Under the pieces are notes generated by a model. That model ran no database searches, was not told the DNA's origin, and saw only the letters and a program-made list of their open reading frames with translations. Source: Thermoplasmata archaeon (GTDB lineage Archaea > Thermoplasmatota > Thermoplasmata > Lutacidiplasmatales > UBA184). Taken from it: 39,914 bases of DNA. Location: positions 1 through 39,914 of the forward strand of contig JASHUS010000205.1 in the NCBI GenBank assembly GCA_030039865.1, written 5' to 3'. Of this stretch, positions 8,860 to 37,583 are shown piece after piece (the stretch's first letter is position 1; each line of letters opens with the position of its first letter). The translations under genes and the position numbers were made by a program.

Positions 8860-10605
8860 CTACCAGCCCACCGGCGCGCCCTGGTTCTCGTGATCGAGCC
8901 ATCGCTGGAGCGGGGCGAAGTACTCCAGCAGCGCCGCCGCGTCCATGCGGCGCTCGCCCGTCGCGGCCTCGAGCGCGTCGGGCCACTCCCGGCGGCTGCC
9001 GAGCTCGAGCATGGACCGCAGACGTTCGCCGGCGGCGCGCGAGCCATGGATCGTCGCGCGGTGGAGCGGCCCGGAAGAACCCGCTGCGCGCACGAGGGCG
9101 CGGTGGAACTGGAACTCGAGGATGTGCGCGAGGAAGTAGCGCATGTACGGGGTCCCCGAGGCGACGTGGAACTTCGCGCCCGGGTCGAAGTCCGCCTCGC
9201 TTCGGCCGGGCGGCGGGGCGATCCCCTGGCGCTCGGTGCGCATCTCCCACCAGGTCCGGTTGTACCGCTCGGGGCCCACGTCGCCCGAGAAGACCCGCCA
9301 GCGCCATTCGTCCACGACGAGCCCGAACGGCAGGAAGGCGAGCTTCGCGAGCGCGCGGCGGAGCAGGTAGGGGATGTCATCGGTCGGTCCCGACGTCGCG
9401 TCGAGGAGGCCGATCGCCGTGAGGTACTCCGGCGTGACCGAGAGCGCGATCGTGTCGCCGATCGCCTCGTGAAAGCCGTCGTGCGCGCTCTCGCGGAAGA
9501 GGAACGGCTGGCGCGCGTAGGCCCGCTGGTAGAAGTTGTGGCCGAGCTCGTGGTGGACGACGAAGAAGTCCTCCTCGCTGATCTCAAGGCACATCTTGAG
9601 ACGAAGGTCGTCGGCGTAGTCGATGTCCCAGGCGCTCGCGTGGCAGACGACGTCGCGGCCGGGAGGGCGCACGAACATCGAGCGCTCCCAGAACGTCGCG
9701 GGCAGGGGCTCGAACCCGAGCGAGAGAAAGAATCGCTCCCCGTAGCGCACGAGCTCTTGCGGTGTGGTCTTCCGCTCGCGCAGCACCGCGCCGAGGTCCC
9801 AGCTCGGCCCTTCGGTGTCGGGCGCGAGGAGCGGGTAGATCCCGGCCCACGATTGGGCCCACATGTTTCCGAGCAAAAACGCGGGGATCGGTCCGGTGTC
9901 CGGAACGAGCTCGGGACCGTACCGGGCGCCAAGCCGCCGCCGGACATAAGCGTGGAGCGATCGGTAGAGAGGACGCACCTGGTCCCAGAGGCGCCCCGCC
10001 TCGCGGGCGAAGTCGTCCGCCGGCATGTCGTACTTCGCGCGCCAGAGGGCCCCGAGGTCCGGATAGTCGAGCTCGCGGGCGCCTCGATTGGCGAGCTCGA
10101 CGTACCGGGTGAAGTCGGAGCGCATCGGGCGGGCGATCGCGTGCCAGCCGCTCCAGGCCTCCTCGAGCGACGCCGGGTCCCGGCTCGTCTCCAGGATCCG
10201 CGAGAGTCCCTGCACATCGAGCGGCGCCGGGGATCCCCGAGGTTGGTAGCGCCCCCGGGCGTACAGGGCCTGCATCGCGCTCGACAGGCGGCTCAGCTCC
10301 TCGGCCTCGCCCGCGCCGGACGGCGCGATGAGCGTGAACGATCGGCGCAGCAGCTCGAGCTTGCGCGCGTCGACCGGACTCCGAGTTCGCCCTCGCAGGG
10401 CCGACGAACGCTTCGCGAGGTCCGTCGCCGCGGTCATCAGCCGGGCGGCCGCGAGCGAGGTGAGCTCCTCCGTGTCGGGTGTGATGAACGTGCAGTAGAT
10501 CCAGTCCGCGCGGTTCGCCTGGATCGACAGTTCGAGCAGGCTGCGCTCGGCCTGGTCGAGGAACTCGGCCGGATCCGCGGGTGGGACGTCGAGGGGTTCG
10601 CTCAA
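8860..10605 (-). CDS. Peptidase family M2 (angiotensin-converting-enzyme-like peptidyl-dipeptidase)
   Basis: 581 aa. Zinc motif [15 protein letters not shown] followed by [12 protein letters not shown], the ACE-type third-ligand Glu context. N-terminal [13 protein letters not shown] resembles ACE W.Y.TNIT. The start is TTG at 10605. No signal peptide. Confidence 0.85.
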
Positions 10606-13952: not shown

Positions 13953-15887
13953 CTAGTTGGATATGCCGTAGGATTTGCGGACCTTATGAAGCAGGTCCGC
14001 GAATCGAGGATCCGCCGCCATGTTTCGGTACGAGGGGTCTCGAAGTTCGCCGGCCCCCGCGACCTTGCGCTCAATCATGTCTTCCACGAAAGGAAAGAAA
14101 CGCTCCCGATCACCGATGAGCGCCATCGCATACGATACTTGGCCAATCTCACCCAGCGTCGCCGGCGAGTCACGGGCGGCGGCGAGGGCCAGAGTCTCAT
14201 CGATCAGTCGCGAAGCTTCCTCCTTGTTCCCGAGGTGCGCTTCGATCCGGGCCTGGACGCTCTTGTACCTCATCTCGTCCGGCTCTAGTCTTCGGATGGT
14301 TCGCAGATCCCGGTAGGCATCCTCTCGCCGTCCCTTCGTGGCGTTTAGCACGGCGCGGGCGAAGTAGGCCCAGGAGAGGGCGGGCTCCATTTCGATCAAC
14401 CGAGTCGTGGCCGCGAGACATTCGTCGTAGCGGTCCGCGAAGTAGTACGAGATCAGGAGAAACCACGTTCGAGACGATGGAAGCGGGTCCAACTCGTAGG
14501 CCCTCTTCGCCTCGTCGAGGGCTTCGTCCAGCCGACCCAGTCCCCGCAAGACATACCCGTACCGTTCATGGGCGTCGGCGTGACTCGGGTTCAGCGCGAG
14601 CGCCTTCTTGAGTTCGACTTCAGCGCCCGGGTAGTTGTCCCGCATCATCACGTTCGCCATGGCGACATGAGCCTCGGGCAATGTACCGTCGAGTTCGATG
14701 GCCCGCCGAGCGAGCGACTCGGCCCGTCCGTACCCCTCGTCCGGGTCGAGGTATCCTGCCGCTGCCAGATCGCGGTAACAATCGGCCAGCCCGGCAGTCG
14801 CCCGCGCCGACTCCGGATCGAGCTTCATCGCGTCCTCGTAGAGGACCTTGGCCTGTTCGGTGGCTTCCCGGCCGATCTTCGCCCACAAGGCGAGAGCTCG
14901 AAGGCAGAGGGCGTGAACTTCGGGACTTTCCGCCCGGCCCCCGACTCGAGGGGAGGGGAGCTTCAACGCTTCCGCAATCTTGCGCGCGATGTCGGACTGG
15001 GTCTCGAAGACGTCGTCCAGGCTCCCATCGTAGCTCTGTGACCAGAGATGGCTATCTCGCTCGGCGTCGATGAGTTGAACAGTGATTCGCACGCGGTTAC
15101 CGGACTTCCGAACGCTACCTTCGAGGAGTTTTCCGGCCTTCAGTTCGCGTCCGATCTCGGGCAGGCTCTTCGAAGACTGCTTGTACCTCATCGCGGAGGT
15201 CCGCGAGATCACGCTCAGACCGCCGATCCCGGACACCGCCGAAATGATCTCGTCCGTCATCCCGTCGGCGAAGTACTCGTCGCTGGCGGCGGGGCTGAAG
15301 TTGGCGAGGGGAAGAATCGCGATTCGATTCTGATCGACGGCGTACGGTACCGCGCCACCCCTTTCCGTCCACGGCATGACCACCTTGAACAATTCCGGGG
15401 GCGTGCTCACGTTCTTGAGTGGCTTCGGACCGAGGCTCGTCATGGGCAGTTCGAATTTGTTCTGGACCTGGTCGTAGACCTGCCGAGAGATACAGACCCC
15501 GCCGGCTTCTGCGAGCGGCTCGATCCGTGAGGCCACATTCACCGCGTCGCCCGAGATGTCGTCCGGGGTTCCCACCACGTCTCCGAGGTGCACCCCGACC
15601 CGGAGGAGCACCTGCCGCTCGGACGGCCGAGAGAAGTTCGCCTCGCGGCTCGTCCGCTGAATCTCGTAGGCGCACCGCACGGCCTCGAGCGCGTTCGGGA
15701 ACTCCACCAGGAAGCCGTCTCCCATCGTCTTGACTTCCCTCCCCCCGTGGCGCTCGAAAATCGGTCGAAGCATCGCGCGCTGTTCTCCAAGCAACTCGAG
15801 CGAGAGCGCTTCGTCGCGCTGACCGAGCGCCGTGAAGCCGACGATGTCGGTGAACATGATGGCGGAGAGACGACGGACCGACGCCAC
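13953..15887 (-). CDS. Class III adenylate/guanylate cyclase fused to a TolB-N-like domain and TPR repeats
   Basis: 644 aa. Cyclase homology domain with FTDIVGFT, KTMGDGFL and GDAVNVASRIE (metal Asp residues, Lys, Asn-Arg all present). This is followed by IAILPLANFS…YFADGMTDEIIS…LIDAERDSHLW, then repeated TPR-like helices. GTG start at 15887. The gene is visibly A/T-richer than its neighbours. Confidence 0.85.
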   Translation of the reverse strand: MASVRRLSAIMFTDIVGFTALGQRDEALSLELLGEQRAMLRPIFERHGGREVKTMGDGFLVEFPNALEAVRCAYEIQRTSREANFSRPSERQVLLRVGVHLGDVVGTPDDISGDAVNVASRIEPLAEAGGVCISRQVYDQVQNKFELPMTSLGPKPLKNVSTPPELFKVVMPWTERGGAVPYAVDQNRIAILPLANFSPAASDEYFADGMTDEIISAVSGIGGLSVISRTSAMRYKQSSKSLPEIGRELKAGKLLEGSVRKSGNRVRITVQLIDAERDSHLWSQSYDGSLDDVFETQSDIARKIAEALKLPSPRVGGRAESPEVHALCLRALALWAKIGREATEQAKVLYEDAMKLDPESARATAGLADCYRDLAAAGYLDPDEGYGRAESLARRAIELDGTLPEAHVAMANVMMRDNYPGAEVELKKALALNPSHADAHERYGYVLRGLGRLDEALDEAKRAYELDPLPSSRTWFLLISYYFADRYDECLAATTRLIEMEPALSWAYFARAVLNATKGRREDAYRDLRTIRRLEPDEMRYKSVQARIEAHLGNKEEASRLIDETLALAAARDSPATLGEIGQVSYAMALIGDRERFFPFVEDMIERKVAGAGELRDPSYRNMAADPRFADLLHKVRKSYGISN

Positions 15888-18807: not shown

Positions 18808-20529
18808 TCAATCGTACCGGTATCGCGTCGCCGCCCGGCGGTAGAGCGGCTTCCATATGAGCTCGTTGATGGCGATGACGGTTCCGACCATCGCGAGGAG
18901 CGCCGTCGCCATCAGCGCGTAGCCCGACGAGCCCAGCGAGTTGCCGATGTCGATGAGCTGACCGAGGCCGAGCAGGCTCAGCTGCTTCGTCGGACCGACG
19001 CTGAGGTACTCCGCGACGATCAGCGTGTTCCACCCCCCACCGAACGCGGTGATCGAGCCGGTGATGAGCGCCGGGAAGATCCCCGGGAGGAGGACGCGCC
19101 GGAAGAACTTCCAGCCGCGCACGCCGTACGAGCGCGACGCCTCCACGAGGTCCGGCGGCAGGGAGCGCACGCCCGAGAGAATGTTGAAGAAGAGATACCA
19201 CATCATCCCGGTCATCAGCATCAGGATCGACGCGCCCTCCGCGCTGATGAACGGGATCAGCTGGAAGATGATCACGGGAAAGAGCGCGGTCGCGGGGAAC
19301 GACGCGATCACCTCGATGATCGGGAGCCCGACCTTGCTCGCGCGCGAACTGCGGGAGATGTGGATCGCGAGCGGCAGCGAGATGCACAGGCAGATCGCGT
19401 ACGACGCGACGATGCGTAGCGTCGACGCGCCGACGGCGGCCGGCACCTGGGCGATCAGCGCGCGCACCGACGGCTCGATCGGATGCGTGTAGACGCTGAG
19501 GAGCGCGACGACGAGGGCGATCAAGAGCAGCCAGACGATGACCAGGATAGTCCCGAGCGCGAGGTAGTAGTAGACCGAGCGGCGCCGGGCGCTCGAGGGC
19601 CGGACCGGGCGCACGGTGATCGCCGCGAGCTGGACGAGCGGGGTCGTCACCCGCGTGACCCCGGTCCGGACGCGCTCCGTCACGTAGACCCGGGCGCGAT
19701 GGAACCGGCCGGCGGAGTCCCGCTCGGGCGCGACGATCTCGGTCTCGCCGGACGGCGAGACGTCGTACCGGAACCGCTCCGCCCAGCGGCCGAGCGGACG
19801 CCAGACGACGAAGTCGAGCAGCGCGATCACGATCACGAGGACGACGATCCCGGCGAGGAACTCGGCGGCGTTCGAAGCGCTCGCGGCGAACGAGAGGTAG
19901 CTCCCGATCCCCTGCAGCGCGTTCTTGGTGTTGGTCGTGAAGATCTCCGCCTCGACGAGGAAGAACCATCCGGCCGTCCAGGAGAGGACGGTGTTGTAGA
20001 CGAGCCGGTTGACGCACGCGGGATAGAGGACGCGGCGGAAGAGCAGCCAGCCCCGCAGGCCGAACGTGTCGGCGGCCTCCTTGAGATCGCCGGGGAGGGT
20101 CTTCAGCGACTCGTAGACGCCGAAGACCATGTTCCAGGCCATCGAGGTGAAGATCAGGAAGACGGACGCGAAGTTCGGACCGATGAAGCTGCCCGGCGTG
20201 GCCGCCGCGAGGATCACGACTGCGAACGGAAAGAAGCCGAGGATCGGAACGGATTGGAGGATGTCGAGGACGGGGATCATGATGCGTTCCCCGCCTCGGT
20301 GCGTCGCCGCGTAGTACCCGTACGCGAGGGAGAAGCCGAGCGACAGCGCGTAGGCCGCGAGCATGCGCGTGAACGAGTAGGACATGTCGACCGTCGCGCG
20401 GGGGAGGTACGACGCGAAGTTCGAGAGCGACGAGCCCGAGCTCACGGCGAGGAAGACGAACGCGAGCGTCGGGATCGCCGCGTAGATCGCGAGCGCGCGC
20501 CGCGCCGAGGGAAGGACCGTGGTCCGCAC
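18808..20529 (-). CDS. Tandem-fused ABC permease (two BPD_transp_1-type domains), NitT/TauT family
   Basis: Two EAA loops: EAADTFGLRGWLLFRRVLYPA and EASRSYGVRGWKFFRRVLLPG. At least 12 TM helices. The track ORF extends to 20781, but that Arg/Pro-rich extension would overlap tRNA-Gln. The in-frame GTG at 20529 (VRTTVLPSARR…) sits just before the first TM helix. The start is uncertain. Confidence 0.8.
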   Translation of the reverse strand: MRTTVLPSARRALAIYAAIPTLAFVFLAVSSGSSLSNFASYLPRATVDMSYSFTRMLAAYALSLGFSLAYGYYAATHRGGERIMIPVLDILQSVPILGFFPFAVVILAAATPGSFIGPNFASVFLIFTSMAWNMVFGVYESLKTLPGDLKEAADTFGLRGWLLFRRVLYPACVNRLVYNTVLSWTAGWFFLVEAEIFTTNTKNALQGIGSYLSFAASASNAAEFLAGIVVLVIVIALLDFVVWRPLGRWAERFRYDVSPSGETEIVAPERDSAGRFHRARVYVTERVRTGVTRVTTPLVQLAAITVRPVRPSSARRRSVYYYLALGTILVIVWLLLIALVVALLSVYTHPIEPSVRALIAQVPAAVGASTLRIVASYAICLCISLPLAIHISRSSRASKVGLPIIEVIASFPATALFPVIIFQLIPFISAEGASILMLMTGMMWYLFFNILSGVRSLPPDLVEASRSYGVRGWKFFRRVLLPGIFPALITGSITAFGGGWNTLIVAEYLSVGPTKQLSLLGLGQLIDIGNSLGSSGYALMATALLAMVGTVIAINELIWKPLYRRAATRYRYD

Positions 20530-20727
20530 GGGCTTCGACGCGGCCGGACGTCCGACCGTCGTCGCGGGCGCCGGCCCGGTGCGCCCGCGGCTCGCCGCTT
20601 CCGCCGGATCCGAGTCGGTCGTCGGTCTGCCCCCTGGGGCCGGAATCTCTCGCGGACCCCGCTTGGATATATGGGTCGAGTGGTCGAACGGAGTCGGCGG
20701 GGCGCGCGGACGTCGAATTTCGGCAAC

Positions 20728-20735
20728 TTTTATCC
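20728..20735 (+). promoter_or_regulatory. TATA-like box for tRNA-Gln
   Basis: TTTTATCC lies 25-32 nt upstream of the tRNA 5' end (20760) in otherwise GC-rich sequence. Confidence 0.45.
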
Positions 20736-20759
20736 GTACCGCGACGCTGGCGCGGATGT

Positions 20760-20866
20760 AGCCCCGTGGTGTAGTGGCCAATCATGCGAGACTCTGGATC
20801 TCGCGACGCAGGTTCGAACGCCGCGGGGGCGCGTCGCCCTGCCGGCCGGAACTCCTGCCGGGGCTA
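20760..20866 (+). tRNA. tRNA-Gln (anticodon CTG) with a 34-nt intron (20819..20852) in the T loop (between positions 59 and 60); CCA not encoded
   Basis: Acceptor AGCCCCG/CGGGGCT (7/7 bp, A1-U72 as in archaeal tRNA-Gln). Anticodon stem CGAGA/TCTCG with loop CTCTGGA. T stem GCAGG (20808-12)/CCTGC (20854-58). The T loop TTCGAA|T is interrupted. The intron junctions form a bulge-helix-bulge: central helix TTCG (20813-16) with CGGA (20847-50), 3-nt bulges AAC and ACT, and inner helix GCCG (20820-23) with CGGC (20843-46). Confidence 0.9.
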
Positions 20867-26133: not shown

Positions 26134-27864
26134 CTAGGGGTGTCCGTAGACGACCCGCAGCGGGGTCGAGCCGGGCGCCCAGTCCCCGTCGACCCGGACG
26201 AACCCAACGCGCTCGAACTGGAGGATGTCGCGCGGCTGCGCCGCCGCGAGCGCCGCCTCGCCGATCCCGCCCGACCGGCCCCCCTCGGGCGAGAGTACCT
26301 CGACCGGGAGCGCGTCGGCCGCCGACACCCACTGGAGCCGAGGGAGACGCTGGTTGGGGCGGCTCGTGAACGTCGCGCGGATCGATCCGCCGGCTCCCGG
26401 GACCTCGGCCGGCAGGCGCACGTTGACGAGGTCCTTCAGGCGGACCTCCTCGCCCGGGTGGGCTGCGAGGTCCTTCGCGGCGAGGTAGAAGTCGGGCCCG
26501 GCGCGGACCGTGCGCCGTCCGAGCTCCGGCCGGTCCGGATGGTTCGCGAGCTCGACCGAAGCGAGCTCGAACGGGTAGCCGTCGACCCCGACCCGGACGG
26601 GATCGGCCACGAACGAACGGCGGACGGTCGTCGCATCGATCCGCTGGCGGTTCTCCGCGTAGAGCGTCTCCGCGGGCACCTCGATGTCGGCGAGGGAGAG
26701 GCCGAAGGAGAGCGTGAACGCCCGGAGGGCGTCCATCGAGATCCCCCGTCGATCGAGGGACCGCAGCGACCAGGTCCGCGGGTCGGCCCACCCGTCGTAC
26801 TCGCCGGACTTGACCTCGGCGTAGGACTTACTCTTCGAGACCTTGGCTTCGCGGACGCGCAGGATCCCCCAGTGGAGGAACGGCGGGCCGGTGACCCCGA
26901 GGAGGTCCCAGACGTACCGTTCGACGCGGTCCTCCATGACGAGGTCCTTGCCCCGCACGACGTGCGTCACGCCGAGCTCGACGTCGTCCACGACCCACGA
27001 GAACTCGAGGAGCGGCCAGACGCGGATCCGCTGCCCGACGCGCGGATGCACCTGGTCGCTGATCCGGAAGAGCACCCGGTCGCGGAACGCGGGGTCCGGG
27101 TCCGCGAGATCGGTGCGCAGGCGCAGCACCGCCTCGCCGGGACCGTAGCCGTTCCCGAGCATCTTCTCCCATTCCGTGAGCGTCTCCGCGACGGTCTGGG
27201 CACGCTCGGGACACGCCCGCCCGAGCCGACGATTCTCCCGCAGGAGCTCGGGCGGGCAGCGGCAGACGTACGCCCCGCCCTTTTCGATGACGCGCCGGGC
27301 CCACGGGTAGTGCGACGGGATCCGGTCGGACTTGTAGAGGACGCGATCCGGCCGCACCCCGGCGAGCTCGAGATCGCCGAGGATGAGGTCGAAGAACTCC
27401 GGCTCGACCCGCTTCTCCTCCGAGCCGATCGTGTCGTCGAAGACGAGGAGGAGCTCGCCGCCGTACCGCTCGTGGTAGTACTGGTTCACGAAGAGCATCC
27501 GGGCGCTCCCGATGTGGAGGCCCCCGCTCGGGAACGGCGCCATCCGCAGGCGCACCTTGCCCGGCACGGCCCCGGGGAGCTCGGGGAACGTTCCCCCTTC
27601 GTCGCGGGCCGGGCGGGGCGCCCCGGCCTCGGGACCTCCGCGGCGGACGAGCTCCTCCTCGAGCTCGGGCACCGGGCGGCCGGCGAGCTCCGCGACGACC
27701 TGCGACGCGAACGACCGGACCTCCTCCGCCCGCCGCCGCAGGGTCGGCTCGCTCGCCAGGATCCGGCTGACGACCGGGGCGACCTCGGCGACGCCCGCAT
27801 GCGCGACCGCGTTCTCGAGCGCGATCCGCCGCACCCGGTCCTCGACCCCCGGCGGGAGCGGCAC
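26134..27864 (-). CDS. gltX: Glutamyl-tRNA synthetase, archaeal type
   Basis: RMAPFPSGGLHIGSARM (HIGH-region), KVSKSK (KMSKS), RGKDLV, and an archaeal N-terminal ALENAVAHAG region. Start taken as GTG 27864, 24 nt after the upstream gene's TAA. The track ORF (to 28725) reads through the upstream gene in another frame. Confidence 0.92.
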   Translation of the reverse strand: MPLPPGVEDRVRRIALENAVAHAGVAEVAPVVSRILASEPTLRRRAEEVRSFASQVVAELAGRPVPELEEELVRRGGPEAGAPRPARDEGGTFPELPGAVPGKVRLRMAPFPSGGLHIGSARMLFVNQYYHERYGGELLLVFDDTIGSEEKRVEPEFFDLILGDLELAGVRPDRVLYKSDRIPSHYPWARRVIEKGGAYVCRCPPELLRENRRLGRACPERAQTVAETLTEWEKMLGNGYGPGEAVLRLRTDLADPDPAFRDRVLFRISDQVHPRVGQRIRVWPLLEFSWVVDDVELGVTHVVRGKDLVMEDRVERYVWDLLGVTGPPFLHWGILRVREAKVSKSKSYAEVKSGEYDGWADPRTWSLRSLDRRGISMDALRAFTLSFGLSLADIEVPAETLYAENRQRIDATTVRRSFVADPVRVGVDGYPFELASVELANHPDRPELGRRTVRAGPDFYLAAKDLAAHPGEEVRLKDLVNVRLPAEVPGAGGSIRATFTSRPNQRLPRLQWVSAADALPVEVLSPEGGRSGGIGEAALAAAQPRDILQFERVGFVRVDGDWAPGSTPLRVVYGHP

Positions 27865-27887
27865 GGGGCGCGCGACCGTTCTCGGGG

Positions 27888-28700
27888 TTAAAGGGATTCG
27901 CGCGGCGGGCCGGGCGGACGCGGGCCGCGGTACGCGGGGTTGCGCTCGATCGTCTCGATGACGGCTTCCGCGAGGGTGATCTCCCCGCGCAGGACCCGGT
28001 GCGCCGAGGTGCGCGAGATCGTCACCCGGCCGTCGCTGCCCTCGCGGCTCAGTCGCTGGAGGTTGGCGATCTCCCCCGGGGTGTACGACTCCGGGATCGG
28101 CTCCCGGACGACGAGCCCGCGGCCGCGGGCGATCTCGCGGGCGGCCGCGGCGTCGCGCGGGCGGCGTCGCCCCCGGGGCGTCGTGCCCTGCTCGTCGACG
28201 AGTTCGACCGTTCGCTGGTGAGCGAGGAGCGCGTTGACGATTCGATTCCGAGCCGGGGGGTCTCCTGTCCCGACGCGGAAGACGACGCGACGGGTCTCGA
28301 ACCGGTGGCGCAAGTGCTTCGCGAAGACGCCCGCAGCCTCGGGCGAGTCGAGGTTCCCCTGACCGATCACGGAGGCGCCGGCGAGGATCGCGTAGCCCGG
28401 CCGGGGACCGGGATCGATCCCGACGACGATCTCCTCCTCCGCCGAGCTCGGTCCGAGGGCGTGCTCCACCGCGGCGCCGAGCGCCCGTCGATCGATCCCT
28501 TCCGAGACGGCGATGACGTTCGAATGGGCGATCGAGGGAGCTTCCGCCGGTGACGTGAGCACGATGGCGACGCTCTCGGGGATCCGGTCCCCGGGAAAAA
28601 GGCTCACCGTGGGCCAGCGTCGGTCTCGGAGAAGTCCCGCCAGCTCGTGATAGAGCGACGGGTCCCGAGTGACGAGTGCGACCGACCGACGTGCCACCAT
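27888..28700 (-). CDS. Conserved-looking hypothetical protein with an RNase H-fold (RuvC/YqgF-like) central domain
   Basis: 270 aa. IVVGIDPGPRPGYAILAG… is the GIDPG signature of RuvC/YqgF-like folds. The C-terminal region is helix-turn-helix-like. The family assignment is tentative. Confidence 0.5.
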   Translation of the reverse strand: MVARRSVALVTRDPSLYHELAGLLRDRRWPTVSLFPGDRIPESVAIVLTSPAEAPSIAHSNVIAVSEGIDRRALGAAVEHALGPSSAEEEIVVGIDPGPRPGYAILAGASVIGQGNLDSPEAAGVFAKHLRHRFETRRVVFRVGTGDPPARNRIVNALLAHQRTVELVDEQGTTPRGRRRPRDAAAAREIARGRGLVVREPIPESYTPGEIANLQRLSREGSDGRVTISRTSAHRVLRGEITLAEAVIETIERNPAYRGPRPPGPPRESL

Positions 28701-28711
28701 GGTACCTGACG

Positions 28712-29089
28712 ATGATATACGGCATTAACCTTCGCCCCCACGTGCCCGTCTGTCTCCACTGCGGCGAGCTCGCTCCGGAAGGGGCGCTCTTCTGCGCGAA
28801 GTGCGGCTACACGCTTCCCCAGGTCGACGCCCCCGGCGCGGCTCCGGCGCCTGCCCTCCCGGCCCCGCCTCCTTCGATGCCGGGGGCGGCGCCGCCTCCT
28901 CCGCCCCCCGCGCCGACGAGCGCGAGCGCGTTCGTCCCGATCGCGACCCCAGCGTACCTCGTCGCGATCCCGCCGGGCGCCACGGGACCGATCCCGCCGC
29001 CGCCGAGCGGCAAGTACTGCGTCCACTGCCGGACGATCATCGCCCGTGCGGCGGCCTACTGCCCGGTCTGCCAGCAGCCGCAACCGTGA
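28712..29089 (+). CDS. Double zinc-ribbon protein with a Pro/Ala-rich linker
   Basis: CLHCG…CAKCG at the N-terminus and CVHC…CPVC at the C-terminus. ATG at 28712. Alternative starts are GTG 28676 (track) and GTG 28742; the latter lies 27 nt downstream of an ATATAC box (28715-28720) and would give MPVCLHCGE…. Confidence 0.6.
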   Translation: MIYGINLRPHVPVCLHCGELAPEGALFCAKCGYTLPQVDAPGAAPAPALPAPPPSMPGAAPPPPPPAPTSASAFVPIATPAYLVAIPPGATGPIPPPPSGKYCVHCRTIIARAAAYCPVCQQPQP

Positions 29090-29738: not shown

Positions 29739-30008
29739 CTAAAGTCCGTAGGCTTCGTCGTGGTGGGCCAATCTTAGCAAACGCACTACCTGTTGTTTGA
29801 GCAAAGGTTCGAAGAGCAGAACATACGATCCTGCGACGTGCACTCGGCGCACTCCTTGAAGGGGGGCATGCAGGGGCTTGTAATGGAGAGGGTTCCGGAG
29901 AATTTGGTCCACCTTGGTTTCGACAGCGCGTTTGAATCCGGCGTTGCGTGCGCAGAGCTTCCGGTAGTCACGCTCGAACTCAGGGGAGACCTCCAGGTCC
30001 CAGCTCAC
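29739..30008 (-). CDS. RelE/ParE-family type II toxin
   Basis: 89 aa. …PEFERDYRKL…ILRNPLHYKPLHAPLQGVRRVHVAGSYVLLFEP…VVRLLRLAHHDEAY follows the RelE/ParE pattern (NP…k.L.g.l.g..R.rvG.Yr….v.i..v.hR..aY). Confidence 0.8.
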   Translation of the reverse strand: MSWDLEVSPEFERDYRKLCARNAGFKRAVETKVDQILRNPLHYKPLHAPLQGVRRVHVAGSYVLLFEPLLKQQVVRLLRLAHHDEAYGL

Positions 30009-30241
30009 CGCGACTCACCAAAGACTTCGTTCAGGGATCGGATCTTCCGAAACTTACCCTTCCGGATCCGCTGGAGGTCTGCTGCGAAATCGGGCCGGAG
30101 GGCCGGGTCGAGGATTGTCTCCTCATAGGCGGCGACGATACTCTCGAGTGCCTCCGACTTGCCCTTGAGTCCGTCTCGGGCCTTGACCACATTGACGACG
30201 CGATTAGCGTGCTCCGAGAGCTCCACGACAGCCTTGGGCAT
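30005..30241 (-). CDS. Cognate antitoxin (DUF2683-like archaeal antitoxin)
   Basis: MPKAVVELSEHANRVVNVVKARDGLKGKSEALESIV…. Its stop overlaps the toxin start by 4 nt. ATG 30241 lies about 30-36 nt downstream of CTTATAT (minus strand, 30271-30277). The track ORF extends to 30292. Confidence 0.65.
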   Translation of the reverse strand: MPKAVVELSEHANRVVNVVKARDGLKGKSEALESIVAAYEETILDPALRPDFAADLQRIRKGKFRKIRSLNEVFGESR

Positions 30242-30270
30242 AATCCAACGTAACTCCATGTAACGTCGAG

Positions 30271-30277
30271 ATATAAG
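30271..30277 (-). promoter_or_regulatory. TATA box upstream of the antitoxin-toxin operon
   Basis: CTTATAT (minus strand) lies 30-36 nt upstream of the ATG at 30241. Confidence 0.4.
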
Positions 30278-30368
30278 AGCTATAGGTCCCACGTGCCGTG
30301 TCCAAGAGCGACTGCGGTTAGCGAGGAGATTTTCGCTCGAGTCACGTTCTCGGATTCGATCTTTCCTG

Positions 30369-33628: not shown

Positions 33629-33641
33629 ACGTATTATACGT
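33629..33641. repeat. A/T-rich 13-nt palindrome in the divergent phoU-like/oxidase intergenic region
   Basis: ACGTATTATACGT (ACGTAT-T-ATACGT), nested inside the inverted repeat CGCGTG (33611-16)/CACGCG (33642-47). Confidence 0.6.
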
Positions 33642-33732: not shown

Positions 33733-36465
33733 ATGTCGGGCACGGACCTCCGTCCCTCGCAGGCCGGTGCCGAAGAATCGAGCATCCCGGTCTTCGAGCG
33801 GCCCCCGGCGCTCATCCAGTGGCTCGACGCGACCGAGGATTCGATCCGGCTGAGCCTCGCGAAGCTCCGACTGTTCGAGCGGATCTTCCTCCTGCGGCGC
33901 GACTGGATGACCCGCATCACGATGCTGATGCTGATCGCCGGCCTCCTCTGGGGCGCGGTCGGAGGGTTCGACGCCTTCGGGTTCCAGACGCAGGTGGTCG
34001 CGTACGCCACCGGTTCGGTCGTGCACCTGTCGAACGTCGAGATCTACTCGTCGGTCACGCTCCACGGCATCCGCGAGCTGTTCGGCTTCGCCCAGCAGCT
34101 CGAGATGGCCGCGCTCGGATTCCTCGTCGTCAACGCGCTCGGCCTTGTGCCCCGGCACAAGTGGACGCTCTACTCGACCGTCATCCTGCTCAACGGCTCG
34201 ATGCTCCTGATCCAGGGACCGATCTACTTCCTCCCGTTCAACGACAACTACTTCCCGGCGAGCGGATGGTACTTCCTCTCCCCGCTCGGGATCAACGGGC
34301 AGAGCGCGTACGTCGTCAGCCCGCTCTTCTTTCTCGGCTGGCTCGCGCTGTGCGCCGCGCTCTTCCTGTGGACCGCCTGGATGGTGATCCACCTGCGCGA
34401 TTGGTACCGGCAGCACCGCGCCGAGGCGCAGGGGCGGCGGTACCCGGTCTTCCTCTGGTTCGTCGTCGGCACGCTCGTCCTCGTGCCGCTGACGTACGGG
34501 CCGCTCGTCGTCTCGACCGCGTGGGACATCGGTAGCGCGTACGCGGGCTGGCCGATCAGCGCGCTCGCCAACCAGGTTATCTTCTGGATGTTCGGCCACA
34601 GCCTCGTCTACCTCCTCTTCCTCCTGCCGATCGTCGCCCTCTACGTCCTCATCCCGATCCTGGCGCGCCGGCCCCCCTACAGCTACCGCTGGGCGGTCGC
34701 GTCGGCGATCCTCTTCGTGCTCCTCACGCCGCTCCTAGGGCTCCACCACCTCTACCTCGCGCCCCTCCCGGCGTGGTCGACCTGGCTCACGATGGCGCTC
34801 TCGTTCGCCATCGCGCTACCGTCCGCGATCACGTTCTTCTCGGTCTGGATGACCGTGAAGGGCGTGCCCGCGGGGCAGTGGGAATGGAACGCGGTCGCGC
34901 TCTTCGCGCTCCTCGCCTTCGCGGGGGCGATCTTCGGCGGGCTCTCGGGCCCCGCCCTCGCCACGATCCCCTGGGACGTGGACGTGCACAACAGCCTGTT
35001 CGTGCTCGGCCACTTCCACGCCATGACGATCCTCGCGATCGCGGCCGGCGGGTACGCGCTCCTCTACGCGGTCTTCCCGATCCTCACCGGCCGGCAGTGG
35101 TTCTCCGCCTGGCTCGCGCGGCTCCACTTCCTCTTCACGGTCGTCGGCGGCGCGACGATCGTCGTCGCGTTCGAGGAGCTCGGCAGCCTCGGCGTCCTGC
35201 GCCGCGAGTTCATCCTCCCGCATCTCGCCGCGATCACGAGCTACCAGCTGATCCTCCTCGGCGGGATCGTCGTCATGCTGGGCGGCCAACTGTTCTTTGT
35301 CGCGAACGGCGCGCTCACCGTCTTCCGCGGGGAGCTCTACAGCGCCGCCGGGCTGTCGTTCGACGAAGCGATCCGGCGGGCCGCCCAGTCGACGGTGCCG
35401 AAGCGGCGCCGTCGGGTACCGATCGCCGACGTGCCGTTCGTCCGCCGGGTCTCCCGCGCCCGGCGCGAACGGATCGAGGCGGCCTGGGTCGGTACCGTCA
35501 TCGTGCTGCTCGCGGGCGTTCTCGCGGCGGCCACGCCGGGGGCGTTCGCGGTCGGGAACTCGATCAACGGCGACGCGGCCGACCCCGGCGTGAGCGAGTG
35601 GATCGATCTCCACGGCCAGCAGTACTACTGGAGCGCGACGGAGTCGGGCGCGGTCAACGGGACGTACGACAACGCGCTCGTCGTCTTCGCCGGCGCGTCG
35701 GTCGAGGTGAACCTCTCGGCGAGCGGGGCCACGCAGTCGCTCCTGATCCCGTTCCGGGACCAGGCGGTCGTCGACGTCCAGGCGGTCCCGGGCACGCCCT
35801 CGTACGCCTCGTTCACCGCTCCGAGCGTCGCTGGGGTGTACGGCGCCCCCGACGGCGAGTACGACGGGCCCTGGTTCGGCCAGGACGTCTCGGCGCTGAT
35901 CGTGCTGCCGACCGGCGCCGACACCGGTGCTTCCCTCGCCAGCTTCCAGTCGAACGGGGGCGGTGGGGACATCTACAATCCTCCCGTCCTCCCCGCCGCG
36001 ACGGCCGACCTCGTCGGGAATCCCGAAGGGCTGTTCAACGACTCTGTCCCCGGCCCGACGCTGTCGGCGAACGTGGTCGCCGGGGGCGGTCCGGTGTCGC
36101 TAGAGTGGACCGTGCCGCTCGACAGCATCGGCATCAACAACTATCTCGTCAACGTGACATCGAACAGCCCGAACGCGCAGCAGCAGTACGTTCTCCAACA
36201 CAACGGCACTCTTCCCTATCCCACGGGACTCTGGAGGATCGATCCGGCCCGCGGGCTCGCGCCCGTCAACGGCACGCTCGGTCCGCTCGTGATCGGGCGG
36301 AACGTCTCACTGAGCTCGGACCTCGTCCCGGGCGCGTACCTGTACGGGCTCCCGAGCCCGGTCGACTACTCGTACGACCCGGCGGGCGACTCCGGGCCGG
36401 GGGTCGGGATCCAGACGGGCGACGTGATGGGGCTCTGGGGGGTGCTGTGGGTGGGCGGGGCATGA
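33733..36465 (+). CDS. Heme-copper oxidase subunit I (B-family/ba3-like) fused to an extra TM helix and a roughly 305-aa Cys-free extracellular tail of cupredoxin-like domains
   Basis: 910 aa. Ligand contexts: TLHGIRELFGF (helix II His), FWMFGHSLVY (CuB His with the cross-link Tyr), GLHHLY (helix VII HH), VLGHFHAMT (helix X HxH). After helix XII comes a basic linker, then the TM helix AAWVGTVIVLLAGVLAAA, then the tail from about nt 35548. IDLHGQQYYWSA…VEVNLSASGATQSLLIPF…VPGTPSYASFTAPSVAGVYGA resembles the subunit II cupredoxin fold, but the CuA Cys/His/Met residues are absent. Confidence 0.85.
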   Translation: MSGTDLRPSQAGAEESSIPVFERPPALIQWLDATEDSIRLSLAKLRLFERIFLLRRDWMTRITMLMLIAGLLWGAVGGFDAFGFQTQVVAYATGSVVHLSNVEIYSSVTLHGIRELFGFAQQLEMAALGFLVVNALGLVPRHKWTLYSTVILLNGSMLLIQGPIYFLPFNDNYFPASGWYFLSPLGINGQSAYVVSPLFFLGWLALCAALFLWTAWMVIHLRDWYRQHRAEAQGRRYPVFLWFVVGTLVLVPLTYGPLVVSTAWDIGSAYAGWPISALANQVIFWMFGHSLVYLLFLLPIVALYVLIPILARRPPYSYRWAVASAILFVLLTPLLGLHHLYLAPLPAWSTWLTMALSFAIALPSAITFFSVWMTVKGVPAGQWEWNAVALFALLAFAGAIFGGLSGPALATIPWDVDVHNSLFVLGHFHAMTILAIAAGGYALLYAVFPILTGRQWFSAWLARLHFLFTVVGGATIVVAFEELGSLGVLRREFILPHLAAITSYQLILLGGIVVMLGGQLFFVANGALTVFRGELYSAAGLSFDEAIRRAAQSTVPKRRRRVPIADVPFVRRVSRARRERIEAAWVGTVIVLLAGVLAAATPGAFAVGNSINGDAADPGVSEWIDLHGQQYYWSATESGAVNGTYDNALVVFAGASVEVNLSASGATQSLLIPFRDQAVVDVQAVPGTPSYASFTAPSVAGVYGAPDGEYDGPWFGQDVSALIVLPTGADTGASLASFQSNGGGGDIYNPPVLPAATADLVGNPEGLFNDSVPGPTLSANVVAGGGPVSLEWTVPLDSIGINNYLVNVTSNSPNAQQQYVLQHNGTLPYPTGLWRIDPARGLAPVNGTLGPLVIGRNVSLSSDLVPGAYLYGLPSPVDYSYDPAGDSGPGVGIQTGDVMGLWGVLWVGGA

Positions 36466-36680
36466 CGGACGCCGCGCCCGATCGACCGACGGCTGGGGTC
36501 GGCCCCTTCGGGGTGTTCGGGATCGTTGCGGCGATCGCGGCGGCCGGCGCCGTCTTCGAGATGTCGTACTACTCGGCCAACGCCGCTCTCTCCCCGGCCG
36601 CGCTCGGCACCACCGTCGGGATCGTGATCGCGCTCCTCGCGTTCTTTGCCTGGGGGATCCGCGCCCCGCCGAACGAATAG
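36462..36680 (+). CDS. Small two-TM membrane protein (72 aa), possible accessory oxidase subunit
   Basis: The ATG at 36462 overlaps the oxidase TGA (ATGA). MTDAAPDRPTAGVGPFGVFGIVAAIAAAGAVFEMSYYSANAALSPAALGTTVGIVIALLAFFAWGIRAPPNE. Read from the end of track ORF 34773..36680. Confidence 0.5.
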   Translation: MTDAAPDRPTAGVGPFGVFGIVAAIAAAGAVFEMSYYSANAALSPAALGTTVGIVIALLAFFAWGIRAPPNE

Positions 36681-36683
36681 GCA

Positions 36684-37583
36684 GTGGGAAAGACGTCTTG
36701 GACCGGGTCGCCTCGCTCCGGCGGGATGGACCGGGGCGGGTGGGACGGCCTCGCGGCATGGCGCGACGACCGGATGGGCGAGGAGGGCGATCTCTGGCAC
36801 CGGGCGATCATCGACCCCACGCTCCTCGACGTCGTGGGACCCGTGCGGGGCCTCGCGGTGCTCGACCTCGCCTGCGGCAACGGCTACCTCACGCGCCGCT
36901 GGGCCCGTGCGGGGGCGACCCGGGCGGTCGGCATCGAGCGGTCCCGGCCGACGATCGCGAACGCGCGTCGTCGGGAGCGAGACCGCCCCTCGGGCGCGGT
37001 CTTCCTTGAGCGCGACGCGGCGCATCTGCGCGGACTCTCGAGCCACTCGTTCGACCTCGTCGTCGCGAACATGGCCCTGATGGACATCCGCAACGCCGAG
37101 GGCGCGATCCGCGAGGCGAGCCGGGTCCTGCGCCCGGCGGGGCGCTTCGTCTTCTCCCTGAACCATCCCTGCTTCGACGTCGACGAGCGCTCGGGCTGGC
37201 TCGTGGAGCACGCGCGGGACCCGCGGGGCGACCGGCACGAGGTCGTGGCGCGCAAGGTCGCGCGCTACCGCGACGAGCGGGCGGTCCGCGTCCCGTGGGA
37301 CGTCGGGCCCGGCCGGGTCGGGTGGACGACCTCGTTCCACCGGACGATCCCGACCTACGCCCGCTGGCTGCGCGCGGCGGGCCTCGCGATCACCCGCCTC
37401 GAGGAACCGGTACCGACCGACGAAGCCGTCGCGAAGAGCCCGGAAGGTCGGTTCCTGCTCGAGATCCCGCTCCACCTCGTCGTCGAGGCCCGGCCCCTCC
37501 CCGGGCTCCGTCCGGACGGGGCCGTCAGGCGACGGGGGTCGCGAACGTCGGAAGGTACGACGACGCAAACGTCCCCACGATAG
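36684..37583 (+). CDS. Class I SAM-dependent methyltransferase
   Basis: Motif I VLDLACGNGY, motif post-I GIERS, LRPAGRFVFS. GTG 36684, with the alternative ATG 36726. The low-complexity C-terminal tail overlaps the convergent radical SAM gene by 59 nt. Confidence 0.8.
   Translation: MGKTSWTGSPRSGGMDRGGWDGLAAWRDDRMGEEGDLWHRAIIDPTLLDVVGPVRGLAVLDLACGNGYLTRRWARAGATRAVGIERSRPTIANARRRERDRPSGAVFLERDAAHLRGLSSHSFDLVVANMALMDIRNAEGAIREASRVLRPAGRFVFSLNHPCFDVDERSGWLVEHARDPRGDRHEVVARKVARYRDERAVRVPWDVGPGRVGWTTSFHRTIPTYARWLRAAGLAITRLEEPVPTDEAVAKSPEGRFLLEIPLHLVVEARPLPGLRPDGAVRRRGSRTSEGTTTQTSPR

Follow-up and report, generated by a model that had tools for sequence, protein, structure and literature searches.

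A DoxB-DoxC fusion polypeptide in a likely DoxBCE-type terminal oxidase operon of uncultured Thermoplasmata

We analyzed a stretch of 39,914 nucleotides (contig JASHUS010000205.1 of assembly GCA_030039865.1; hereafter the window) from a Thermoplasmata archaeon of the Lutacidiplasmatales, in which an open reading frame (ORF) of 910 amino acids (aa) joins a heme-copper oxidase subunit I to a long C-terminal tail and is overlapped at its end by an ORF of 72 aa (Table 1). ORF calling reproduced the long ORF, which an earlier interpretation of the DNA letters (hereafter the sequence-only reading) had described. The locus is likely an operon of two genes that encode a B-family quinol:O2 oxidoreductase of the DoxBCE type, in which DoxB and DoxC form one polypeptide and a DoxE-like subunit is encoded next. 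The suggestion that the enzyme might be a terminal oxidase with an otherwise unusual entry of electrons was not borne out. Because the tail is a homologue of DoxC and the small ORF a probable homologue of DoxE, the locus encodes the fused form of a known complex and not electron entry of a new type. It is a fused variety of a known enzyme in a new host lineage and does not represent a novel class of oxidase. In Acidianus ambivalens, DoxBCE serves as the terminal quinol oxidase, and it is the biochemically characterized member of this group (PMC5461723, PMC8551704).

The kinship with DoxC emerged from an exhaustive search of 1.84 billion representative proteins with a tail-only profile of 24 sequences, which returned just 30 matching proteins. 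These included members of the fused family, both complete and fragmentary, a fused protein of 865 aa (P0129) from a Thermoprotei metagenome-assembled genome (MAG), stand-alone Sulfolobaceae proteins of 343-359 aa in which the entire tail was matched (E = 1e-39 to 1e-46), and a few CuA-type COX2 proteins (E = 1e-7 to 5e-4). UniRef and NCBI give relatives of the stand-alone proteins the name 'Terminal oxidase, subunit (DoxC)'. In Saccharolobus and Metallosphaera, the gene order is COX1 (584 and 585 aa, respectively), DoxC (351 and 348 aa) and a 62-aa ORF, which is followed in Saccharolobus by a 67-aa ORF; this order corresponds to the doxBCE(F) arrangement described for the A. ambivalens terminal quinol oxidase (PMC5461723, PMC8551704). 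In BLASTP comparisons, the core of the fused protein was 36% identical over 502 aa to Saccharolobus DoxB, i.e., the COX1 encoded beside DoxC (E = 9e-106), which is far above any PDB or NCBIfam match. The tail was 32% identical to DoxC from end to end, up to the last residue (E = 2e-40), and this alignment included the transmembrane (TM) helix and the C-terminal sequence VMGLWGV; DoxC carries the motif GxVMGLWG at its C-terminal end. The SoxA/SoxB proteins of Sulfolobus, which the sequence-only reading had cited as a parallel, are therefore not the closest known system, which is the DoxBCE system of Acidianus and other Sulfolobaceae; the accompanying suggestion of a quinol oxidase is reasonable.

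The third component is represented by the small gene, which encodes two TM helices. Its start codon is the ATG at 36462 within gcATGAcg, where start and stop of the two genes overlap as ATGA, as had been claimed, and this coupling is conserved: a gene of 70-87 aa, whose product ends in AP-x-N-E/D, overlaps the stop of the fusion gene in 34 of the 34 complete loci. A profile of 24 of these Thermoplasmata ORFs matched three DoxE-like ORFs (from loci L047, L051 and L050) from end to end in hhalign (probability 93.8%, E = 1.8e-7, 59 columns), and the two sets have in common a Glu in the first TM helix and a C-terminal AP-x-x-E. BLASTP gave no alignment between the 72-aa ORF and the 62-aa DoxE, and homology to DoxE is for that reason probable rather than certain. 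Several of the fused proteins (P0009, P0021, P0026, P0047 and others) are labeled 'cbb3-type cytochrome c oxidase subunit I' by NCBI. This is a systematic misannotation, since the labeled proteins are without C-family features and are homologous to DoxB and DoxC.

The catalytic core matched Pfam COX1 over residues 61-508 (E = 8e-63; 213 bits versus a gathering cut-off of 34.8). Its ligand motifs are TLHG (H111), GHSLVY (H289 and Y293), HH (H338/H339) and HFH (H427/H429), where, after correction of the residue numbering, the CuB His is 289 and the cross-link Tyr is 293. The low-spin heme is assigned to H111 and H429, the high-spin heme to H427, and CuB to H289, H338 and H339. All of these residues and Y293 are invariant in an alignment of 71 sequences, and the ligands line up with those of Thermus thermophilus ba3 and bovine COX1, so that the complete set of heme and CuB ligand contexts described from the sequence, together with the cross-link Tyr, is in place. 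The ba3 subunit I sequence in this alignment was identical to chain A of PDB entries 1EHK/1XME. Y293 stands in helix VI one helix turn past the first CuB His, where the cross-link is predicted.

The signature residues of the core are those of a B-family (ba3)-like subunit I. The D-channel Glu is replaced (bovine E242 corresponds to I235 of ba3 and to L291 here), and helix VI reads FWMFGHSLVY without a YS motif. A K-channel analogue is formed by S364, T367 and Y304, which correspond to S309, T312 and Y248 of ba3, and bovine K319 and T316 correspond to T367 and S364; in this region, ALPSAITFF pairs with AVPSLMTAF of ba3. In the 71-sequence alignment, S364 and Y304 do not vary, and the conservation of T367 is 90% or higher. 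Because the D-channel Glu is replaced and the K-channel residues match those of ba3, the B-family-like assignment holds at the level of signature residues, as the sequence-only reading had it, and it agrees with the placement of DoxB in family B (PMC3512248). An assignment to family A or B by fold was rejected: the AlphaFold2 (AF2) model contains 12 core helices and matches solved subunit I structures in Foldseek with target TM-scores (TMt) of 0.7-0.84, and Foldseek scores A- and B-family subunit I equally well, so that the fold cannot decide between them. By phmmer, the protein scored higher against A-type structures (59 bits) than against ba3 (25 bits). Among family profiles, it matched COX1 as given above and the SoxB model with 94 bits; the scores against the NCBIfam Sox models are, however, far under the family cut-offs.

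The BLASTP alignment to DoxB stops at residue 553 of the fused protein, and the last 78 residues of DoxB are unmatched. Unfused DoxB has two additional TM helices past TM12 (i.e., 14 TM helices in total) that have no counterpart in the fused protein, where a basic linker takes the place of TM13-14 of DoxB. Residues 546-582 contain 13 Lys/Arg versus 3 Asp/Glu. The following helix, TM13, aligns with residues 4-35 of DoxC by BLASTP and with the TM helix of CuA-type COX2 by hhalign, and these alignments identify it as a homologue of the N-terminal membrane anchor of DoxC and subunit II. Since the two DoxB helices are without counterpart, the N-in/C-out anchor of DoxC is attached in the fusion directly to the end of TM12 that faces the cytoplasm. 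The basic linker and the TM13 leading to a predicted extracellular tail, which had been proposed from the sequence, are both borne out by the charge count and the AF2 helix at residues 575-612. At the other end of the protein, the N-terminal extension is predicted by AF2 to form helices at residues 26-43 and 46-51 and has the consensus PVFERPPAL..FLD.TEEAIR.RLAKLRLF. It is found in all the fused proteins of Thermoplasmata and not in Sulfolobaceae DoxB, whose BLASTP alignment begins at residue 54.

The tail (residues 606-910, 305 residues) contains no Cys, two His and one Met. Its AF2 model (residues 570-910, from a 69-sequence alignment) has a mean predicted local distance difference test score (pLDDT) of 87.7 and a predicted TM-score (pTM) of 0.83, and shows a single long helix and, after it, two beta domains, D1 and D2. 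The best PDB matches of this model in Foldseek are subunit II chains of heme-copper oxidases (E = 2e-9 to 1e-7), including caa3 (2yev_B, 2e-9), CyoA of bo3 (7xmc_B, 4e-9), aa3 subunit II and the CyoA fragment 1cyx, and they cover the helix and D1. Consistent with this, hhalign aligned the tail with four CuA-containing COX2 proteins over 142 columns (probability 97.6%, E = 4.6e-12). The first half of the tail is thus a subunit II cupredoxin, as it had been judged by eye, and D1 folds as such in the model. A weak match to NCBIfam SoxA (residues 648-712, E = 5e-4) was also found in D1, and DoxC gives the same weak match.

The CuA ligand set (H...CxExCxxxHxxM) is absent from D1. In the hhalign mapping, the first His corresponds to Q668, the two Cys to D707 and D711, the second His to F715 and the Met to D718; E709, which corresponds to the CuA Glu that is a ligand through its backbone carbonyl, is retained. 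The loop, DGEYDGPWFGQD, hardly varies among family members, and its equivalent in DoxC is NGEYNGPWF. Because every CuA side-chain ligand is replaced, D1 is a degenerate CuA domain, as is CyoA of bo3. DoxC itself is accordingly a CuA-type subunit II in degenerate form, to which a beta domain has been added. The function of DoxC has been described as 'not clear' (PMC5461723), and DoxC was not counted among the subunit II clades of Sulfolobales in a 2012 analysis (PMC3512248).

For D2, Foldseek gave two-domain alignments of the tail to Cu nitrite reductases, small laccases and multicopper oxidases (320-370 columns, E ~1e-8), with TM-scores of ~0.25 and a root-mean-square deviation of ~14 A. The proposal that the second half of the tail resembles a multicopper oxidase domain therefore stands in part: D2 is probably cupredoxin-like, and the TM-scores are low. 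Its C-terminal motif VMGLWGVLWV is conserved, and the tail-profile search of 1.84e9 representatives returned no sequence relatives of D2 beyond DoxC-type proteins. Type-1 copper ligands are not complete in D2, where H823 (84%) and M899 (96%) are conserved and Cys is absent. Cys-free tails make up 109 of 121, and no His pair is conserved across these 121 tails. The claim that the tail is unable to bind CuA or type-1 copper is hence supported by the lack of Cys and the replaced ligand positions. The seven N-x-S/T sequons of the tail were confirmed and are enriched over composition-preserving shuffles (2.2 +/- 1.4, P = 0.003); N660 and N807 are kept in 98% of 120 homologues.

The fusion is a recurrent feature of soil Thermoplasmata. 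More than 120 clusters of ~900 aa with 97-100% query coverage and 53-78% identity were retrieved from 5.8 billion proteins, and all the organism-named clusters were from 'Thermoplasmata archaeon' MAGs. When a single genome of each GTDB species was scanned, 46 fused loci were found, Ca. Lutacidiplasma silvani included, in MAG collections from soil, peat and similar sources. Among 120 homologues, the mean identity was 59-61% for the tail versus 70% for the core. The ORF of ~900 aa is uninterrupted in 34 independent loci from different studies. Three long-read (MFD) MAG copies have scattered frameshifts (L013, 10001-12715; L042 and L043, 10001-12690), and in L013 a patch of ~33 codons, bounded by two in-frame stops and located in the region of the CuA loop and the D1-D2 linker, is shifted out of frame and then compensated. 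These breaks are most likely indel errors of long-read assembly, which also account for the truncated database entry P0086 (718 aa). We rejected the interrupted copies as evidence for split genes, given that the breaks are scattered and none is at the junction.

In the literature searched, which did not include Murali et al. (2022), where it may be covered, a fusion of DoxB with DoxC is not described. For complex IV, the one fusion given in a survey of gene fusions in archaea is I+III (PMC11237513). The order of subunit I followed by a subunit II-like part, with which the sequence-only reading was unfamiliar, does exist in the C family ('bifunctional cbb3-type subunit I/II', NCBIfam NF011053).

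How electrons would enter the enzyme can be proposed from these data. TM12 would end in the cytoplasm, where the Arg-rich linker would lie, and TM13 would take the tail outside, where it may be N-glycosylated and cap subunit I at the position of subunit II. Membrane quinol would deliver electrons directly to the low-spin heme (H111/H429), from which they would pass to the center of high-spin heme, CuB and Tyr293 for the reduction of O2 to water, and protons would be taken up via a single K-type channel with B-family-like pumping. The enzyme may thereby be a quinol-oxidizing branch beside the A1-type oxidase of Lutacidiplasmatales. Quinol is proposed as the donor because a relay of CuA or heme c is lacking and because the unfused homologue is a caldariellaquinol oxidase. 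The CuA motif C-x3-C-x3-H-x2-M was absent from all frames of the window and 51 related loci (848 kb), and no CuA subunit II, which could have been encoded nearby, was found within +/-10 kb in 42 loci. COX2, cytochrome b and Rieske proteins were absent from the window ORFs scanned with Pfam, and the rest of the window is without respiratory genes. In the Lutacidiplasmatales genome paper, the only locus described is that of the A1-type coxA/coxB (PMC9287336). When the core profile was aligned by hhalign with Escherichia coli CyoB (sequence verified against 1FFT_A), the invariant D80 and the near-invariant E103 fell on D75 and H98 of the bo3 quinol site, and R71 and Q101 of that site had no match in the alignment. 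The AF2 model of the whole protein (910 aa, 71 sequences; pLDDT 86.7) has a pTM of 0.88, a value compatible with tail and core being fixed relative to each other.

Several points weigh against the DoxBCE-type interpretation. The quinol oxidase activity of the fused enzyme, which is a reasonable prediction, is extrapolated from a characterized member that is unfused. D80 and E103 are a weak lead to a quinol site, being the sole one, and ba3 may share an Asp near there. The probable homology of the 72-aa ORF to DoxE comes from a profile match between short hydrophobic proteins in which BLASTP found nothing. The predicted docking of D1 onto the core follows from the pTM value, and the probable cupredoxin-like nature of D2 is deduced from two-domain Foldseek alignments of low TM-score.

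One alternative is that the enzyme depends on a cytochrome or a blue copper protein and receives electrons via a separately encoded redox partner (a CuA subunit II or a cupredoxin), with the fused tail being merely structural. Lutacidiplasmatales do encode blue copper proteins and CoxB beside the A1-type oxidase (PMC9287336), and at least one B-family enzyme, that of Aquifex, is reported to take both cytochrome c and quinol (PMC8251803). However, the fused D1 is itself a homologue of subunit II and is by homology expected at the subunit II site, no redox partner is linked to the oxidase genes in the 42 loci, and the unfused homologue is a biochemically characterized quinol oxidase (PMC5461723). 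We therefore regard this alternative as improbable.

A further possibility concerns the history of the fusion. The Thermoprotei MAG JAVZLA010000057 (L050, 3587-6369) encodes the fused DoxB::DoxC protein P0129, mentioned above, together with an overlapping 62-aa DoxE-like gene. The core of P0129 is 45-46% identical to Sulfolobales DoxB versus 39-40% to the Thermoplasmata proteins. Because this core is nearer to Sulfolobales DoxB, the fusion is either ancestral to the DoxB lineage or has arisen twice. It is conceivable, if rather unlikely, that the fused DoxB::DoxC with DoxE is the ancestral form, a self-sufficient two-gene proton-pumping quinol oxidase in which D2 has a function of its own, and that the split form of Sulfolobales is derived. 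In that case, D2 might dock an extracellular or blue-copper donor, which would make the enzyme a dual-donor one, or might anchor the oxidase to a glycosylated envelope.

It is very unlikely that the locus encodes a nitric oxide reductase (NOR) derived from the B family (eNOR, sNOR, gNOR, etc.) or another non-respiratory derivative. The B family has given rise to several NOR families, and gNOR has a cupredoxin subunit without CuA (PMC11214002). In the fused proteins, however, the three CuB His and the cross-link Tyr (H289-Y293) are invariant, whereas NOR families alter the active site and the Tyr cofactor is a hallmark of O2 reductases (PMC11214002); DoxB, to which the fused proteins are most closely related, reduces O2. 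That the long ORF is an artefact in which doxB and doxC were merged by a sequencing or assembly error can be practically dismissed despite the frameshifts or in-frame stops in the gene of L013, L042 and L043, since these breaks do not fall at the junction, the linker is conserved, the two extra DoxB helices are cleanly absent, and the recurrence of the fusion in the 34 intact loci and the >120 clusters already refutes it.

Compared with the aa3-type DoxBCE of A. ambivalens and other Sulfolobales, the likely DoxBCE-type system of the window shares all three components, of which the small one is DoxE-like, and their gene order, is likewise without CuA, and has the same B-family channel signatures. 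It differs in that DoxB and DoxC are one polypeptide rather than separate chains with a 14-TM DoxB, in the extra conserved N-terminal segment of ~55 aa, in the absence of a doxF-like fourth ORF, and in its host, which is a high-GC soil Thermoplasmata archaeon and not a thermoacidophilic crenarchaeon. With T. thermophilus ba3 (PDB 1EHK/3S8F) it shares the ligand set, the lack of the D-channel Glu, the K-channel analogue, HN in place of HD past helix IX, and 13 TM helices in the polypeptide. In contrast, ba3 has a separate CuA subunit II and a subunit IIa, oxidizes cytochrome c, and has a low sequence similarity (25 bits by phmmer); TM13 of the fused protein is homologous to the subunit II anchor and not necessarily to TM13 of ba3. 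Like E. coli bo3 (CyoA/CyoB), the system has a subunit II cupredoxin that lost CuA and a quinol donor, which is predicted here, but bo3 is an A-family enzyme with D and K channels, has separate subunits and lacks a second beta domain. SoxABCD of Sulfolobus acidocaldarius also has a subunit I of the B family (the fused protein scores 94 bits against the SoxB model), and D1 is weakly similar to SoxA. The scores are nevertheless far below the cut-offs, SoxC cytochrome b and SoxD are not found near the gene in the window, and SoxA has ~154 profile positions and no second domain. Redox-partner or accessory subunits are covalently joined to subunit I also in qNOR (II-like then I), in CcoN-CcoO (I then II, C family) and in SoxM/caa3 (I+III), and qNOR has likewise lost a redox cofactor and is quinol-dependent (PMC11214002). 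These fusions differ in family, order or domain fold (cytochrome c, not cupredoxin).

Table 1. Features of the fused oxidase gene and its partner in the window, with the evidence for each.
Feature	Position	Strand	Evidence
doxB::doxC fusion gene, 910 aa	33733..36465	+	ORF; Pfam COX1; BLASTP to Saccharolobus DoxB and DoxC
Predicted cytoplasmic extension at the N terminus, residues 1-55, conserved amphipathic helix	33733..33897	+	family alignments; AF2
12-TM catalytic core, residues 56-545	33898..35367	+	alignment with ba3 and bovine COX1; invariant columns; AF2; Foldseek
Basic cytoplasmic linker, residues 546-574	35368..35454	+	charge count; end of DoxB alignment
TM13, AF2 helix 575-612	35455..35568	+	BLASTP to DoxC; hhalign to COX2 TM helix; AF2
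Domain D1, residues 619-728, subunit II cupredoxin fold without CuA	35587..35916	+	Foldseek; hhalign
Degenerate CuA loop DGEYDGPWFGQD, residues 707-718	35851..35886	+	hhalign column mapping; near-invariance
Domain D2, residues 751-910, second beta-sandwich	35983..36462	+	AF2; Foldseek; DoxC BLASTP
72-aa doxE-like gene (probable homologue), product with two TM helices and APxNE at the C terminus	36462..36680	+	sequence; profile comparison

The G+C content of the window is ~70%, and the third-position G+C of the oxidase ORF (0.94) is typical of real genes there. Clustering of ORFs showed that synteny does not extend beyond the two oxidase genes: no neighbor was common to more than 10 of the 42 loci, and the genes for a PhoU/AbrB regulator and an AmmeMemoRadiSam radical SAM protein are local neighbors only. 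The methyltransferase gene downstream (36684-37583) was considered as an oxidase-linked quinone methylase and rejected, given that its weak UbiE/MenG hits, like all the others, are generic class I methyltransferase matches with scores far below the cut-offs; the methyltransferases near the Thermoprotei locus share no BLASTP similarity with it. A perfect 6-1-6 palindrome with a TATA-like core, ACGTATTATACGT (ACGTAT-T-ATACGT), lies at 33629-33641 (+), 92 bp upstream of the oxidase start, within the 198 bp that separate the divergently oriented genes for the PhoU/AbrB-type regulator and the oxidase. No second copy occurs in the window (0 expected). Its interpretation as a conserved operator was rejected, since none of the 51 related loci has it.

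Other observations concern the remainder of the window. An ORF of 581 aa (8860-10605, -) matches the whole profile of Pfam Peptidase_M2 (angiotensin-converting enzyme; E = 4.5e-200), a family known mainly from animals and a few bacteria. This archaeal copy is unusual and suggests horizontal transfer. The segment 12000-18000, which contains ORFs without a Pfam match and a protein with adenylate/guanylate cyclase and TPR domains (13953-15887, -), has a G+C content of 64% versus ~71% and may be acquired DNA. At 29739-30292 (-), a ParE-family toxin of 89 aa overlaps an upstream ORF of 95 aa without a Pfam match, and the two are a probable type II toxin-antitoxin pair beside a tRNA-Leu gene. A tRNA-Gln(CTG) was called by ARAGORN at 20758-20833 (+), was not confirmed by Rfam at the gathering score, and overlaps the start of an ABC permease ORF (18808-20781); this call is probably a false positive. 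In the Glu/Gln-tRNA synthetase ORF (26134-28725, -; 863 aa), the catalytic domain does not start until residue 390, and the first 390 aa have no Pfam match, so that either the start was over-called in high-GC sequence or the protein has a long novel N-terminal extension.

The identification of the fused oxidase as DoxBCE-type shows that the 'cbb3-type' labels in databases are misleading and provides their correction. As a single-polypeptide I+II enzyme with one small partner, it would also be a convenient target for expression and cryo-electron microscopy of a B-family quinol oxidase. Because the natural fusion joins DoxC covalently to subunit I, it is strong evidence that the two work as a single unit with a 1:1 stoichiometry. 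The DoxBCE-type oxidase, so far discussed for thermoacidophilic Sulfolobales, is hereby extended to abundant uncultured Thermoplasmata of soil and peat, including Ca. Lutacidiplasma, which are probably mesophilic, and its predicted occurrence alongside the described A1-type oxidase would imply a branched aerobic respiratory chain in these archaea.

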